Positions 1,322 through 23,418 of a stretch of DNA of 24,426 bases are shown one piece after another. Source of the stretch: a virus (lineage: Duplodnaviria; Heunggongvirae; Uroviricota; Caudoviricetes). The stretch spans positions 1 through 24,426 of IMG/VR virus record IMGVR_UViG_3300029473_000227. One strand, given 5' to 3'. The notes under the pieces are model-generated. The model was not told the DNA's origin, searched no databases, and saw nothing but the letters and a program-made list of their open reading frames with translations. A program made the translations under genes and the position numbers. Position 1 is the first letter of the stretch. Each line of letters begins with the position of its first letter.

Positions 1322-1607
1322 CCATTCCAAAGCCCATCTACGGGTGGGCTTGATAATGAAACCAGAATTTATTCTGGGCAACCAGTTACGGCAGTACCAC
1401 GAAACAACCCAAGCCAGTAAGTGGGGAAATAACACTGGCAGCCACTGAAAGATGAACCTCCTGCCTTATGGCAAAAAAGATTCTTTGTGGTGGCAGACTG
1501 ATGGAAAGACATCGGATAGAATAAAACAGTGGCTAGGGTAGCTCCCGAAAAGCGGAATCGTCACCGCCAGCCACTGAATCTATGACGAACAACTAGACGA
1601 GGTTGAT

Positions 1608-16782: not shown

Positions 16783-16971
16783 TTATTTCCCTAGCACATG
16801 AAACAATGTTTGCTTTAATTCCACCCATACAATTATGACCACTATAGACAGACAAAAGAAACTGAATGCATTGGCATCACGATCGAAACCTTCTCCGGCA
16901 CTAAATCCGTAAAAGGTCATAAAAAATATAAAAATTGCGCACTTTGCAACGTTTACAAATTTTTTCTTCAC
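16783..16971 (-). CDS. small hydrophobic membrane protein (two predicted TM segments), moron
   Basis: 62 aa from GTG at 16971; strong AAGGAGG 5 nt upstream on the minus strand (plus-strand cctcctt at 16977-16983); AT-rich. Confidence 0.5.
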   Translation of the reverse strand: MKKKFVNVAKCAIFIFFMTFYGFSAGEGFDRDANAFSFFCLSIVVIIVWVELKQTLFHVLGK

Positions 16972-17089: not shown

Positions 17090-17509
17090 ATGAAGAGGAT
17101 TATTAGCGTCGTTGCTGGCGTTATCATGTTATCTGGGTGCGCAACTATTGTTGGTGATGAAACGCAACTTGTGCAAGTGAACAGCAATCCTTCTGGCGCG
17201 AGCTTTAAGGTAAAAGATGAATCTGGTGTGATTGTTGCGCAAGGTAAGACTCCACAAGGTGTAACACTCGCCAAGTCAGATGGTAGCTTTTTTGGCAAAA
17301 AGAGCTACCAGATCACTATGGAGAAGGATGGGTACGAACCAGTTACCCTGCCAATCAAAGCCAATGCTAATGGTTGGTATATTGGTGGGAACCTTGTGTT
17401 TGGTGGGTTAATTGGTTGGCTTGCTGTAGATCCATTTAATGGTGGGATGTATACCTTGAAGCCAAAAGAGGCAAACGCATCTCTTATACCATCAACAAAT
17501 CAAGACTAA
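17090..17509 (+). CDS. lipoprotein with PEGA-like domain and C-terminal glycine-zipper segment
   Basis: Signal peptide MKRIISVVAGVIMLSGC with lipobox; PEGA-like motifs (NSNPSGASF...GKTPQGV...EKDGYEPVTL); Gly-rich hydrophobic stretch GWYIGGNLVFGGLIGWLAV. Start ambiguous (17057, 17078 or 17090). Confidence 0.7.
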   Translation: MKRIISVVAGVIMLSGCATIVGDETQLVQVNSNPSGASFKVKDESGVIVAQGKTPQGVTLAKSDGSFFGKKSYQITMEKDGYEPVTLPIKANANGWYIGGNLVFGGLIGWLAVDPFNGGMYTLKPKEANASLIPSTNQD

Positions 17510-17515
17510 TAAATA

Positions 17516-17540
17516 GGACCCACCATCAGGTGGGTTTTTT
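17516..17540. terminator. palindromic hairpin with T-run; candidate bidirectional terminator
   Basis: Stem cccacc / ggtggg, loop atca, six T residues on the plus strand; the mnt stop codon (plus-strand tca at 17526-17528) sits in the loop. Confidence 0.65.
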
Positions 17541-17777
17541 GTACAAATCCTTCAGCGTATCAAACACCATCTTCTTAACAAGATCTGACTGCTCATCAGC
17601 GAGTCGTTCTGCATCGTCACGATATCCAGTCACAGGCGATGGTTTTGATAGAGCATCTTGGACGATTTGTAACAACTCGGAGTTCATTGATCTCCCATTC
17701 GCCTCCGCCCTGAATTTTAATTTCTCCCTTACTTCCATAGGCATACGGAAGTTAAAGTGCGGATCATCTCTAGCCAT
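17526..17777 (-). CDS. mnt: Mnt repressor (ribbon-helix-helix), immI region
   Basis: 83 aa, MARDDPHFNFRMPMEVREKLKFRAEANGRSMNSELLQIVQDAL..., matching recalled P22 Mnt; divergent from arc. Confidence 0.93.
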   Translation of the reverse strand: MARDDPHFNFRMPMEVREKLKFRAEANGRSMNSELLQIVQDALSKPSPVTGYRDDAERLADEQSDLVKKMVFDTLKDLYKKPT

Positions 17778-17799
17778 GCCATCACTCCAAGTTAGTGTA

Positions 17800-17828
17800 T
17801 TGACATGATAGAAGCACTCTACTATATT
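17800..17828 (+). promoter_or_regulatory. Pant promoter (-35 TTGACA 17800-17805, 17-bp spacer, -10 TATATT 17823-17828)
   Basis: Near-consensus sigma-70 hexamers read directly; Arc operator lies between them, Mnt operator just downstream, as described for P22 immI. Confidence 0.8.
17805..17825. promoter_or_regulatory. Arc operator (Oarc)
   Basis: Sequence atgatagaagcactctactat matches the P22 arc operator as recalled; sits between the Pant -35 and -10. Confidence 0.8.
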
Positions 17829-17833
17829 CTCAA
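17805..17833 (-). promoter_or_regulatory. Pmnt promoter (minus strand: -35 TTGAGA, 17-bp spacer, -10 TATCAT)
   Basis: Reverse complement of 17828-17833 is TTGAGA and of 17805-17810 is TATCAT; divergent and overlapping with Pant, consistent with P22. Confidence 0.6.
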
Positions 17834-17852
17834 TAGGTCCACGGTGGACCTA
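17834..17852. promoter_or_regulatory. Mnt operator (Omnt), perfect palindrome
   Basis: taggtccacggtggaccta, a 19-bp perfect inverted repeat overlapping the Pant start region. Confidence 0.85.
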
Positions 17853-17867
17853 TATTGTGAGGTGAAT

Positions 17868-18029
17868 ATGAAAGGAATGAGCAAGATGCCGCAGTTCAAT
17901 TTGCGGTGGCCTAAAGAAGTATTGGATTTGGTACGCAAGGTGGCGGAAGAGAATGGTCGGTCTGTTAACTCTGAGATTTATCAGAGAGTAATGGAAAGCT
18001 TTAAGAAGGAAGGGCGCATTGGCGCGTAA
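17868..18029 (+). CDS. arc: Arc repressor (ribbon-helix-helix)
   Basis: 53 aa, [53 protein letters not shown], essentially P22 Arc; GAGGTGA RBS. The ORF-track N-terminal extension from 17805 is rejected. Confidence 0.95.
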
Positions 18030-18097
18030 AGTTGAAGCCCCAACTGCGGGAACAGTCAGGGCTTCGGTTGTCAGTAAATCCGTGGAGAAAAACCAAC
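18030..18097 (-). ncRNA. sar: putative sar antisense RNA (complementary to the arc-ant intercistronic region and ant RBS)
   Basis: By analogy with P22 sar (about 68 nt). Minus-strand -10-like TATACT (plus 18104-18109) at the ant start; hairpin gaagccc...gggcttc in the intergenic region. Ends not determined. Confidence 0.35.
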
Positions 18098-19000
18098 ATG
18101 AATAGTATAGCAATTTTAGAAGCAGTGAACACCTCTTACGTACCATTCAACGGTCAGCAAATTATCACCGCCATGGCTGCCGGAGTTGCATACGTTGCGA
18201 TGAAGCCAATCGTTGAAAACCTTGGAATGAGTTGGGGTACTCAGCAACAAAAACTTATGAAACAACTAGATAAGTTCAACTGTATTCATATGAATATGGT
18301 TGCCGCTGATGGGAAGCTTCGTAAGCTACTCTGCCTTCCTTTGAAGAAGTTAAATGGATGGCTGTTCAGCATCAACCCTGAGAAAGTTCGAGCTGACATC
18401 CGCGATAAACTGATTCAGTACCAGGAGGAATGCTTTAGCGTGCTGCATGACTACTGGACAAAGGGAAAGGCAGAAAATGCACGTAAGAAAACATCTGTTG
18501 ATGACAGGACTCCGCTTCGTGATGCTGTAAATATGCTGGTCAGCAAAAAGCATCTAATGTACCCAGAAGCTTATGCAATGATTCATCAGCGTTTCAATGT
18601 GGAAAGTATTGAAGAGCTTGATGCATCTCAGATACCGCAAGCCGTAGAGTACATCCACAGGGTAGTGCTTGAAGGTGAGTTCATTGGCAAACAAGAGAAG
18701 AAAACCAACGAGCTTTCTGCAAAAGAAGCAAACAGCCTTGTATGGTTATGGGATTATGCCAACCGCTCACAGGCATTATTCCGCGAACTGTATCCGGCGC
18801 TGAAACAAATTCAATCGAACTATTCCGGCAGATGCTACGACTACGGTCATGAATTCTCGTATGTTATCGGAATGGCGAGAGACGTTTTAATCAATCACAC
18901 ACGAGATGTTGATATCAATGAGCCAGACGGACCAGCGAATCTTTCCGCATGGATGAGACTTAAGAATAAAGAATTACCTCCTTCAGTACATAACTACTGA
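18098..19000 (+). CDS. ant: antirepressor Ant
   Basis: 300 aa from ATG 18098 (GGAG 18084-18087); N-terminus [21 protein letters not shown]; follows mnt-arc as in P22. Confidence 0.9.
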
Positions 19001-19018
19001 CAGATAACCAACGCAACG

Positions 19019-19042
19019 ACCCAGCTTCGGCTGGGTTTTTTT
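19019..19042 (+). terminator. Rho-independent terminator after ant
   Basis: Stem acccagc / gctgggt, loop ttcg, seven T residues. Confidence 0.75.
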
Positions 19043-19100
19043 ATGCCCAAAATTCACCGTAGCCATGCTGCGGCGATTCCTTGTATCTGGAGCAAATTAA

Positions 19101-19163
19101 ATGACAGACATTACCTACTCAACAGATGGTCAGCAACCATGTTTGCTGCCTTATAAGCTATAG
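19101..19163 (+). pseudogene. stranded ancestral tailspike 5' end (RBS + ATG ACA GAC ATT ACC = MTDIT) truncated by the HNH cassette
   Basis: GGAG at 19089-19092 then ATG 19101; the first five codons equal the P22 tailspike N-terminus MTDIT; frame terminates after 20 codons; the HNH stop codon (19111-19113) overlaps it. Confidence 0.55.
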
Positions 19164-19611
19164 CCGCTTCATCAATGGTGTTGAATCTCCCAAGGGTTAT
19201 GTTTTTACCTGAGACATTTATCTGAGCTTGCCATTGATTTCTGGCTTGACAGAAAGTTACCCCCTTGATTCCAGCATTGCTATTTCGAGGTCCGACATTT
19301 AATGCATTTACGACTCTGCTAACATCCCTAAGGTTTGAGATTGCGTTATTTCTTCTGTTTCTATCAATGTGGTCAATCTCTTGTTTGGGCCATTCGCCAT
19401 ATACATACAGCCAGGCAAGTCTATGTGCAAAATATCTTACGCCATCAATATTAATCGCGTTATATCCATAAGAAATTGTGCCAGCAACTTTCCCAACAGC
19501 ACCTCTGGCGCTTAATTTCTTTTTCCAAGTGAAAATTCCTGTTTCTTTATTGTAATCGAGAACCTCCATAAGGCGATCCCGAGTTACTACCTCGTGACGT
19601 CTCTTACTCAT
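19111..19611 (-). CDS. HNH homing endonuclease with C-terminal AP2 DNA-binding domain
   Basis: 166 aa from ATG 19611 (GGAG 8 nt upstream; the ORF track starts at TTG 19653); HNH motif [27 protein letters not shown]2-like [44 protein letters not shown]. Confidence 0.85.
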
Positions 19612-19651
19612 TATTTTCTCCGGAATGTTTATTATGCCAGAACAATTATAC
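19114..19651 (-). mobile_element. homing-endonuclease cassette inserted into the tailspike 5' coding region (approximate limits)
   Basis: Contains the HNH ORF, its RBS and a perfect minus-strand TATAAT (plus 19645-19650); flanked on the left by the ancestral tailspike start and on the right by the resumption of conserved tailspike codons (NVVVS at 19652). Confidence 0.6.
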
Positions 19652-21835
19652 AACGTTGTTGTTTCACAACCAAGTCAGTTATTTACTTTAGCTCGCTCGT
19701 TTAAAGCAAATGCTAATGGTAAAATTTATATCGGTAAAATTGACACGGACCCTGTAAACCCTGAAAACCAGATTCAGGTTTATGTGGAGAACGAAGATGG
19801 CTCTCACGTTCCTGTTTCGCAACCAATAATCATTAACGCCGCTGGTTATCCTGTATATAACGGACAGATTGCCAAATTCGTTACCGTGCAAGGCCATTCT
19901 ATGGCTGTGTACGATGCATATGGGGCGCAGCAATTCTATTTTCCTAATGTGCTGAAGTATGACCCTGATCAACTTGAACAGCGATTATCACTGCCTACAG
20001 CACCTGAGATTATAGGGGTATATCCATCAGGTAAATTAGCAGATGTATTAAATGATGTAACCCCGGAGCAATTCGGAGCTATCGGTGATGGGGTTGCTGA
20101 CGATACGCAGGCATTAAAGGCTATGTTTAAATACATCAATGACATGCCGATTTCATTCACAGACACAGCAACAGAACTTAACCCCCACCTGGATGTGGCA
20201 GCAAAACGTGTTGTTTTGCGCGGCCTGTACATGCACACAGAGACAATCTTTATTCCTTCTGGGGTGCAGATTTTCCAGCCTGGATACTCTTATTTCCGCC
20301 GAAACGTGCAGCAAGGTTTTTATTTCAACCCTCCTTCTGGGGAAGAAAACATGGCTGCTGTTGGTACTTATGTTTATTTGAAGTCCGGTAATACCTGGTA
20401 TCTTAATTCTGACCCAATGTTACTTCCACAGGGCGCACAGATAGATAATGGCACTATCCGCACAGGAGCTAGACACATTGATATTGAGAATCTTAGTATC
20501 ATTACCAAGCCTGGAACCTTGCTTGGTTTACGCTGGTTAGGTGCAGCAGGATGCACAACTCGCAATCTAAGTATTGGTGAGAACACACCAAACAGCACAG
20601 CATCAACCGCCAGAATTCCTAAGGTTGGTATGCTTCACAGTATTGCTTGGGGCAGTGTTCACACAACACCTAAGATTCTATACAAAACTCAAGGTGCTGT
20701 TTTCTACGAGCAAAACGGTGGTTCTGAGGTGAAAAACGCTTACATTGCTCGTCTTGGGCAGGATTCAACTTATTCAGAACAGGTAATTTATAAACCGGAA
20801 GATTTTGACGAAACCGGCGATGTCGCAATTACACAGTACGGGCGCAGTTCTGTGCAGTTCAGGTATTGTGTAACAGAAACATGCTCATTCATGTATGTTA
20901 ACCAGGGTGATGCAAGAAGTAACGGCGGACTTAAGGTTGACGGTTGTCACATGGAAGCCACGGATGGTAAGGCGAAACATTGTTTCTATATTATCAACTC
21001 AGACGCTGATATTCGATTAAACGGTCTGTTTATCCAGGATAGCTCCATTCCTTCCAGTAGCGTGATTTTTGTTAAAAATTGCCAGAAGGGAAGAAGTGTA
21101 ATTGATGTTCACGGATACATGATGTTCAACGGTTACCGATTGCTGGACGGGGAAAACTCTGGAGAAGTCGTAAACTTACGTAACCCAAACGGCGGTCAAT
21201 ACCAATACGGAAAGCTCGGCAAATGGTCGCTGGTTAATGAAGTTACCGGCGTTTCTCCTCAGACTTTGTACATTGATCCGGTTAACGGAGATGACGAAAA
21301 CTGGGGTTTCCACAGCGGAAAAACGCTAAAAACGTTAACTTATGCCGCCAAAATCTGCCGCATGTTTGGTGTAACCGATATCTATACTAACGCAGGTAGT
21401 ATTACATTAACTGCGGATACGGACCTGCCTTCTGCCACGATTCGTGGCGCTGGTGGGATCGTGTGTAACGCAAACGGGAGCTTAGTTGCCTCACGTAAAA
21501 CCAATGTGAACCTGACTCTAGCTGATGGGGTAACAAGCCCTGCTGGTTACCATCTCATAAAGATAAACACTACGGAGCCCGTCGTCGTAGTATCTACCTG
21601 CGATATGACCACAACAACTGCCGCGAACATATTTCTTTTCCAGTCGAACGGTAATGTTGAATGGACGCATAGGGCCGGTGGTGGTCTGGCGTGTTATCGT
21701 TATGCAGGCACTCAGTCAGCAACATATTCGGCAGTGATTGGTTTGAATATCAGGTCTACAACCAGACCAGCTATAGATTCGACACCTGTATCTGGTAATG
21801 TTGTTACTAAATACTCTTCTATTTTGAAATCTTAA
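19625..21835 (+). CDS. tailspike protein: conserved P22/HK620-type head-binding domain plus divergent beta-helix receptor-binding domain
   Basis: 736 aa; residues about 10-116 ([11 protein letters not shown]...NVLKYDPDQ) match the P22/HK620 tailspike N-terminal domain from memory; the rest is unlike P22. Start may be ATG 19634, which restores P22 spacing before NVVVS; neither ATG has a good SD. Confidence 0.88.
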
Positions 21836-22024: not shown

Positions 22025-23182
22025 TCACTCCACCTTCTCATCAAGCCAGTCCGCCCACCACTGCATCATTTCTCTGCGCTTATCGAGATACTGAGCATGG
22101 TTGTAAATTCCGCGCACAGATCCGCCGTTGGCATGTGCCAGTTGCACTTCAATAGCGTCAGCAGGCCATTCGTGCTCGTTCATAACCGTGCTGAATTCAT
22201 GCCTGAATCCGTGACCGCTTTCCAGACCCTCATAGCCGATTTGTTTGATCACAAGCAATACCGCATTCTCGCAGATTGGCTTCTTCTTATCGTTGCGCCC
22301 GGCAAAAACAAACTCTGATACTGGTTTAGTGATGGAGCTTAGCGTAGTGAGAAGTTCAACCACCTGGTCTGACATAGGAACCACATGAATTTTGCGTCCC
22401 TTCATCACACTGGCGTCGATGGTGATAATCCTGTTTTCAAAATCGACGTTCTTCCATTGCATGGAACGAAGCTCTTTCGTTCTTAGGGCTGTGTAGCGCA
22501 AAACTTTAGTCGCAATGAGCGATACGATACTTCCTGAAAATGTTGCCAGTGCTTTATTGAATGCCGGGATCTGGTCTGCAGGAAGAAACGGGAAGTTTTT
22601 CTTGCGGTATCCCTTCATGGCGTCAGCAAGGTCAGGTGCCGGGTTATATTTAGCCCTACCAGTGACAATAGCGTAACGGAAAACCTCGCCGCATCTTCTG
22701 CGGGCTTTATTTGCTCGCTCCATTGCACCGCGATCTTCAAATCTGCGGATTACTTCCAGCAGTTGCATCGGCTCAATCTCCTGAATTTCAAGGCCGCCGA
22801 TGATAGGTAAAATGTCGTCATCAAACATTTTTGCAAGTTCAGTCGCATACCCTACTGACCATACTTGCTTCTTGTGCTCGTACCATTCCTTGTAAATCGC
22901 ACTAAAGGAATTGTTGTTAGACGAAGCCTTTTTCGCCTTTACCGGATCGATGCCAACCGAGATGTCTTTCCTCGCAGTCCATGCCTTATCCCTTGCCTCC
23001 TGCAAAGTCATTAGCGGATATTTTCCTACGGTCAGGATTTTCTCCTTACCGTCAATCTTGTAGCGAAGCTGCCATACCTTTTTCCCGGATACAGGGACAT
23101 AAAGGTACAGGCCATTACCATCGAGAAGGCGGTATGGTTTTTCTTTCGGCTTTGCTGCTTCAATCTGCTTAACGGTGAGCAT
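22025..23182 (-). CDS. intS: tyrosine integrase (P4-type, IntS-like)
   Basis: 385 aa from ATG 23182 (MLTVKQIEAAKPKEKPYRLLDGNGLYLYV...); C-terminal catalytic region with ...HGFRHEF...LAHANGGSVRGIYNHAQY; adjacent to tRNA-Arg. The ORF-track GTG start at 23218 is considered less likely. Confidence 0.9.
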   Translation of the reverse strand: MLTVKQIEAAKPKEKPYRLLDGNGLYLYVPVSGKKVWQLRYKIDGKEKILTVGKYPLMTLQEARDKAWTARKDISVGIDPVKAKKASSNNNSFSAIYKEWYEHKKQVWSVGYATELAKMFDDDILPIIGGLEIQEIEPMQLLEVIRRFEDRGAMERANKARRRCGEVFRYAIVTGRAKYNPAPDLADAMKGYRKKNFPFLPADQIPAFNKALATFSGSIVSLIATKVLRYTALRTKELRSMQWKNVDFENRIITIDASVMKGRKIHVVPMSDQVVELLTTLSSITKPVSEFVFAGRNDKKKPICENAVLLVIKQIGYEGLESGHGFRHEFSTVMNEHEWPADAIEVQLAHANGGSVRGIYNHAQYLDKRREMMQWWADWLDEKVE

Positions 23183-23343
23183 GGGTAAAAATCCGGTGGG
23201 TAAAATTATTTTATCCACTTTTTACCCGTCACGGAGTGCGGCTGTCAACGATCTGAAGCGAACCATGACGAACTGTGAATCTACGGAAGGCTTGATATTC
23301 AGGGGATTTTGCGGACTAGTACGGATGGGAGAGAACTGATAAA

Positions 23344-23418
23344 TGGTGTCCCCTGCAGGAATCGAACCTGCAATTAGCCCTTAGGAGGGGCTCGTTATAT
23401 CCATTTAACTAAGAGGAC
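23344..23418 (-). tRNA. argW: tRNA-Arg (anticodon CCU), argW-like; prophage attachment site
   Basis: Reverse complement reads GTCCTCTTAGTTAAATGGATATAACGAGCCCCTCCTAAGGGCTAATTGCAGGTTCGATTCCTGCAGGGGACACCA (75 nt, CCA end, T-loop GGTTCGATTCC), matching E. coli argW as recalled. Confidence 0.9.

Follow-up and report, generated by a model that had tools for sequence, protein, structure and literature searches.

An Apparently Intact P22-Type immI Module in the ant Moron of an Escherichia coli Lederbergvirus Prophage

The sequence of a mnt-arc-ant locus in an E. coli prophage indicates that it is, with high probability, an orthologous and intact copy of the P22 immI (immunity I) module, carried in the "ant moron" of a Lederbergvirus at argW. 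We refer to the whole 24,426-nt stretch of viral DNA analyzed (IMG/VR record IMGVR_UViG_3300029473_000227) as the window. Within it, a complete P22-type immI module occupies positions 17526-19045, or 17518-19045 if the terminator at the 3' end of mnt is included. The first-pass annotation had claimed a complete module at 17778-18110, and all of the elements that it listed are indeed found there or adjoining that span; as an extent, however, these coordinates cover the control region, whereas the whole module runs from 17518 to 19045. The switch itself is the textbook P22 immI switch, which is already known and fairly common, and there is nothing new in kind about the copy described here.

We read positions 17300-19400 of the window and listed the open reading frames (ORFs) in this region, and the control regions were aligned base by base with those of P22 (BK000583) and Salmonella phage epsilon34 (EU570103), both of which have curated immI feature tables. 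The listing contains three module ORFs, mnt, arc, and ant, all of which are full length and without frameshifts or stops. They form two divergent units, with mnt on the minus strand and arc-ant on the plus strand, and the promoters Pmnt and Pant overlap face to face. The control region between mnt and arc is 90 bp long (17778-17867), and the arc-ant spacer measures 68 bp. Alignment to P22 immI had been proposed as the check on the original claim, and in this alignment, as in that to epsilon34, each annotated P22 feature finds a conserved counterpart in the window, namely Pant, Pmnt, Oarc, Omnt, arc, sar, the sar terminator, Psar, ant, and the ant terminator. All cis-acting and trans-acting parts of the module are present, intact, and identifiable by their sequence identity to the reference.

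Over its whole length, the module (17500-19050; 1551 bp) shares 97.7% identity with epsilon34 and 89.9% with P22, as well as with many P22-like Salmonella phages. In the part that runs from mnt to Psar (17526-18132), 14 of 607 positions differ from P22: five lie in mnt, one just outside the Omnt core, five in arc, two in sar, and one in the weak -35 element of Psar. None of the differences in these 607 nt falls in the operators, the Pant and Pmnt hexamers, or the sar stems. The Shine-Dalgarno sequences of arc and ant are likewise unchanged, and that of mnt falls in a stretch (17778-17851) that is itself unchanged from P22.

Repressors, Promoters, and Operators

The two repressors encoded by the module are ribbon-helix-helix proteins orthologous to those of P22, and both are predicted from their sequences to bind the corresponding operators. 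The mnt gene (17526-17777, minus strand) encodes 83 residues with an N-terminal ribbon-helix-helix domain and a C-terminal tetramerization domain. Its product is 100% identical to the Mnt of epsilon34 and 96% identical to that of P22, from which it departs at three residues (N54D, E65D, and T82P), with residues 1-53 identical. It matches known structures (PDB 1MNT, E = 3e-45; 1QEY for the C-terminal domain) and the Pfam families Arc and Repressor_Mnt. The arc gene (17868-18029, plus strand; stop codon TAA at 18027-18029) encodes 53 residues, is preceded by the Shine-Dalgarno sequence GAGGTG (17859-17864), and matches PDB 1ARR/1PAR/1BDT (E = 5e-31) and the Pfam family Arc. Its product is 98% identical to P22 Arc, the sole change being R16K, which is common to epsilon34, and residues 1-15 are identical. 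Four of the five nucleotide differences between the two arc genes are synonymous, and the fifth is the R16K change. Thus, the earlier statement that Mnt and Arc are nearly identical to their P22 counterparts is borne out. The base contacts of these proteins are made by N-terminal beta-strands, through Gln9, Asn11, and Arg13 in Arc and through Arg2, His6, Asn8, and Arg10 in Mnt. These beta-strand segments are unchanged from P22 in both proteins.

An upstream start for arc was also considered. The ATG at 17805 would give an ORF of 74 residues, and it was rejected because it lies inside Oarc and upstream of the expected Pant start site. The preferred start is the ATG at 17868, which has the GAGGTG Shine-Dalgarno sequence and is the equivalent of the start annotated in P22 and epsilon34.

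Both promoters of the control region were picked up independently by a consensus promoter scan. Pant (17800-17828, plus strand), the promoter of arc and ant, has the -35 hexamer TTGACA (17800-17805) and the -10 hexamer TATATT (17823-17828) separated by a 17-nt spacer, scores 11 of 12 in the scan, and is identical to the annotated Pant of P22. Pmnt (17805-17833, minus strand) has the -35 hexamer TTGAGA (17833-17828), again a 17-nt spacer, and the -10 hexamer TATCAT (17810-17805); it scores 10 of 12 and is also identical to its annotated P22 equivalent.

The operators had been singled out as the place where a difference from P22 at contact positions would speak against the proposal, and no difference is found in Oarc (21/21) or in the Omnt core (17/17). 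An Arc operator between the Pant hexamers was part of the original description, and the 21-bp sequence ATGATAGAAGCACTCTACTAT lies exactly there, between the -35 and -10 elements at 17805-17825, corresponding base for base to the protein_bind feature of P22. This sequence is unique in the window, in which 0.00 chance matches would be expected even at three mismatches. The Mnt operator (17833-17853) overlies the expected Pant start site. Its 17-bp core, AGGTCCACGGTGGACCT at 17835-17851, is that of P22, whose mnt operator feature maps to 17829-17851; the core lies just downstream of the Pant -10 hexamer and is likewise unique in the window (0.02 chance matches expected with three mismatches allowed). 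The window has A at 17852 where P22 has G, which extends the dyad, so that Omnt is here a 21-bp palindrome of the form 10+1+10, ATAGGTCCAC-G-GTGGACCTAT. The 19-bp Mnt operator palindrome that had been noted earlier, TAGGTCCACGGTGGACCTA, is present at 17834-17852, inside this longer one. It had been called perfect, which holds for the arms, in which all positions pair, but not for the central base, which is unable to pair with itself.

The module is bounded by terminators. A terminator scan finds a terminator-like hairpin for mnt at 17518-17535 (minus strand), overlapping the mnt stop codon, and the same hairpin doubles as the plus-strand terminator of the lipoprotein-like gene upstream; in epsilon34, a rho-independent terminator is annotated at the equivalent place. 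At the other end, the ant terminator (19018-19045, plus strand; 19018-19037 in the terminator scan) consists of an 8-bp stem followed by seven T and has annotated counterparts in P22 and epsilon34. The sequence at 19001-19050 is 100% identical to P22.

The sar RNA and the Ant Antirepressor

A "putative sar" had been suggested in the original description, and an Rfam scan of the whole window supports this assignment with a match to RF00262, the sar family, at 18030-18097 (minus strand) that covers the full length of the model (positions 1-68 of 68). The match reaches 95.6 bits against a gathering score of 43 (E = 1.2e-19), with no non-canonical pairs flagged. By alignment, the sar of P22 maps to 18028-18097 and its terminator to 18028-18065. 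Folded alone, the RNA (70 nt) has a predicted energy of -29.4 kcal/mol (z = -4.8 relative to shuffled sequences) and forms two hairpins, as in the Rfam match. The first hairpin spans 18097-18070, and the second, which is the terminator, spans 18065-18034 with a 14-bp stem. In comparison with P22, 66 of the 68 bases are the same, and the two substitutions, at 18050 and 18082, are both in hairpin loops.

The 5' end of sar adjoins the ant ATG (18098-18100), and its 3' end reaches the arc stop codon. The RNA is antisense to the entire arc-ant spacer, within which lies the Shine-Dalgarno sequence of ant (GGAG, 18084-18087). The hairpin that the first-pass annotation placed in the arc-ant leader exists, as the 14-bp stem at 18034-18065. 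We considered and rejected the possibility that this hairpin is a plus-strand terminator, because the plus strand lacks a T-run and the terminator scan is silent there; it is the minus-strand terminator of sar, as annotated in P22. A minus-strand TATACT at the start of ant, which had also been pointed out, is found at 18109-18104, exactly where the annotated Psar of P22 maps. Psar as a whole (18104-18132, minus strand) combines this -10 element with the -35 element GTGTTC (18132-18127), sits just inside ant, and maps onto the annotated Psar of both P22 and epsilon34. The single substitution relative to P22 is at 18127 (the -35 element of P22 is GTGTTA). Since TGC precedes TATACT, Psar looks like an extended -10 promoter (TGn) with a weak -35 element. 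Expression of sar in P22 has been detected by RNA-seq (PMC13397905).

The segment that contains the sar terminator hairpin (18028-18068, about 40-50 nt) is the sole part of the control region that is common to the E. coli phages Kapi1, EC.P3, and CUS-3, and in CUS-3 it is annotated as "bsq2; boundary sequence." These observations suggest that the hairpin serves as a recombination or mosaic joint among ant morons.

The ant gene (18098-19000, plus strand) lies directly downstream of arc and encodes 300 residues. Its product has the same length as the Ant proteins of P22 and epsilon34, to which it is 86% and 97% identical, respectively. It contains the domains P22_AR_N (PF10547, 152 bits) and P22_AR_C (PF10548, 103.7 bits) and matches PHROG 245, anti-repressor Ant. 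A start at the TTG at 18032, which would give an ORF of 322 residues, was rejected in favor of the ATG at 18098, because the 300-residue product is colinear with the Ant of P22 and epsilon34 and has the GGAG Shine-Dalgarno sequence upstream. Nucleotides 61-243 of ant (window 18158-18340) form a mosaic patch with 65.6% identity to P22, whereas the flanking DNA is 89-100% identical. At the protein level, residues 21-80 match P22 at 34 of 60 positions (57%) and epsilon34 at 55 of 60. Like the R16K change in Arc, the patch is common to epsilon34.

Prophage Context and Distribution

The window represents the late half of a P22-like (Lederbergvirus) prophage, with terminase, portal, scaffold, coat, ejection proteins, ant moron, tailspike (with the P22 head-binding domain), and integrase in this order. 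The prophage ends at a tRNA-Arg(CCT) beside a formate/nitrite-transporter gene. The same pair marks the argW/yfdC integration site of E. coli, as in the annotated relative NCTC11121, which agrees with the earlier description of the element as an E. coli-type prophage. The tailspike (19634-21835) has a Pfam match in its N-terminal head-binding domain only. It is directly followed by the integrase (22025-23218, minus strand) and then by the tRNA-Arg(CCT) (23344-23418, minus strand). The gtr O-antigen-modification operon is absent between tailspike and integrase, unlike in the NCTC11121 relative and in epsilon34.

Between the ant terminator and the tailspike start is a gene for an endonuclease of the homing-endonuclease type with HNH_3 and AP2 domains (19111-19611, minus strand; PHROG 99, E = 1.6e-62). 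It is antisense to late-operon read-through, and neither P22 nor epsilon34 has a gene at this position. Upstream of mnt, a lipoprotein-like ORF (17090-17506, plus strand) with the lipobox MKRIISVVAGVIMLSGC is a homolog of gp15 of epsilon34 and matches phrog_6823 (function unassigned), with no match in Pfam. It takes the place of sieA/orf59a of P22, shares a bidirectional terminator with mnt, and may be a superinfection-exclusion gene or another moron gene. A hydrophobic ORF of 62 residues (16783-16971, minus strand; phrog_21338) is found between the gene for the gp16-like ejection protein and the lipoprotein-like gene. Elsewhere in the window, a gene for a regulator of the Rha family (767-1321; Pfam Phage_pRha and ORF11CD3) is followed downstream by an Rfam match to the int-alpA RNA (RF02996) at 1526-1588 (plus strand), which scores 42 bits where the gathering score is 35.8. 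The sequence just upstream of this match (1396-1520) resembles a P22 small-RNA sequence tabulated in PMC13397905.

Among 5426 complete E. coli genomes, the 333-bp control region is covered to at least 80% in 157; its identity reaches 99% or more in 151, and four genomes carry it at 100%. Coverage of at least 80% of the 1551-bp module is reached in 104 of the 5426. Each complete E. coli genome in the collection has a match to the window, if only in the host flank, and none of them covers at least 80% of the 24-kb window, the best showing 78% coverage at 96% identity. The phage isolates with the full control region are almost all Salmonella phages (45 of the 55 records). Among the isolates from E. 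coli, N7 and HZ41 match from arc onwards only, and in Kapi1 and CUS-3 the match consists of the sar-terminator hairpin only. The complete P22-type control region is more common in E. coli prophages than the collection of isolates suggests.

Proposed Working and Comparison with Known Systems

How the P22 switch operates is known from the work of Susskind, Sauer, McClure, and colleagues. PMC11016777 gives an overview of the parts played by Mnt, Arc, sar, and Ant, and the established biology of P22 immI is summarized in PMC2629481. Since all of the parts are present and conserved and are nearly identical to those of P22, we infer that each element would behave here as in P22 and that the circuit is probably active in this host. 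The "active antirepressor circuit" that the first-pass annotation attributed to this lysogen is likewise a plausible reading of the intactness of the module. If so, Mnt made from Pmnt in the lysogen would occupy the symmetric Omnt over the Pant start and keep arc and ant silent. Upon infection, when Mnt and Arc are absent, the strong promoter Pant would fire and yield the arc-ant mRNA. As Arc builds up, it would bind Oarc between the -35 and -10 elements of Pant and shut off both Pant and the overlapping, divergent Pmnt. The drop in convergent transcription from Pant would then allow Psar to yield the sar RNA of about 68 nt. This RNA, being fully complementary to the ribosome-binding region of ant, would pair with leftover ant mRNA and block the translation of Ant. 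Any Ant that is made would bind a prophage repressor of the c2/cI type non-covalently and inactivate it, which would lift immunity and could induce this or other lambdoid prophages. The immC repressor, which is the presumed target of Ant, falls outside the window.

It could be asked whether the module is intact in sequence but silent or decaying, that is, a relic in a defective prophage without a compatible repressor target or expression. We consider this quite unlikely. No part of the late operon is more fluid than the ant moron, HK620 and Scho1 carry ant or arc genes that are degraded (PMC2629481), and the location of immC outside the window would also fit such a relic. Nevertheless, mnt, arc, and ant are full length in the window, the operators and promoter hexamers are unchanged, and the neighboring morphogenetic ORFs are of full size. 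In particular, the mainly synonymous changes in arc and the confinement of the sar changes to loops are the pattern expected under purifying selection. The 151 E. coli genomes that carry a nearly identical control region also argue against decay. Although mnt expression went undetected by RNA-seq in Kapi1 lysogens, this precedent comes from a different locus, which has just 41 nt in common with the control region described here. Thus, we favor a module that is intact and probably works as in P22.

Departures from P22-type behavior within a working module can also be envisaged. Mnt and Arc are thought to take part in late-operon read-through into the tailspike gene. There is a small chance that the N-terminal patch of Ant (residues 21-80) or the antisense HNH-AP2 gene alters this behavior, be it in the target range of Ant (cross-talk among E. 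coli lambdoid prophages) or in late read-through into the tailspike. Still less probable, and indeed very improbable, is that the immI-type switch works but that the mosaic patch gives Ant another repressor specificity, its main role being cross-talk with E. coli lambdoid prophages. The patch does diverge sharply from P22 as both DNA and protein, and trans-acting antirepressors that coordinate several prophages have been documented (Lemire et al. 2011). However, the same patch is present in a Salmonella phage, epsilon34, and is thus not an E. coli-specific adaptation. Furthermore, P22 Ant itself already acts on several lambdoid repressors.

The preferred reading, an intact copy of P22 immI, is of little consequence other than for annotating the locus correctly. 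In this prophage, the secondary immunity switch of P22 is complete and includes sar, which automated pipelines usually leave unannotated; the RefSeq rows of the E. coli relatives contain only "Arc family DNA-binding protein" twice and an antirepressor. If immI is live in the lysogen, loss of Mnt would cause self-induction, and a superinfecting Ant-expressing phage, or the prophage's own Ant, could induce other lambdoid prophages, including Stx phages. In a similarity search with the module, Stx phage genomes were found to share ant-like segments. Self-induction and cross-induction are known properties of a known system.

The immI of epsilon34 (genes 16-18 and sar; EU570103) is alike in gene order, lengths, promoters, Oarc, sar, and Psar. 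Its 97.7% identity over 1551 bp corresponds to 100% for Mnt, 98% for Arc, and 97% for Ant, and the upstream lipoprotein-like gene (gp15) with the shared bidirectional terminator is likewise present. Within 17760-18150, epsilon34 differs by five substitutions. One position of interest is 17851, the last base of the Omnt core, which is T in the window as in P22 and C in epsilon34, and which gives the window the longer Omnt palindrome. Furthermore, the host of epsilon34 is S. Anatum whereas that of the window is E. coli, and the HNH-AP2 gene between ant and the tailspike gene is present in the window only. In the case of P22 (BK000583, X01916), all annotated cis elements map and the Pant and Pmnt hexamers are identical. 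The overall identity to P22 is 89.9%, with the divergence concentrated in nucleotides 61-243 of ant (65.6%), and P22 has sieA and orf59a upstream in place of the small ORF and the lipoprotein-like gene of the window. The window is distinct from Kapi1, a phage that likewise uses argW in E. coli and has mnt, arc, and ant, but shares only 41 nt of the control region. Finally, the P22-like prophages at argW of E. coli (for example, NCTC11121, VE-T2, and ETEC1720) differ from the window in the body of the tailspike and in accessory genes, but they are alike in synteny and in their argW/yfdC site.
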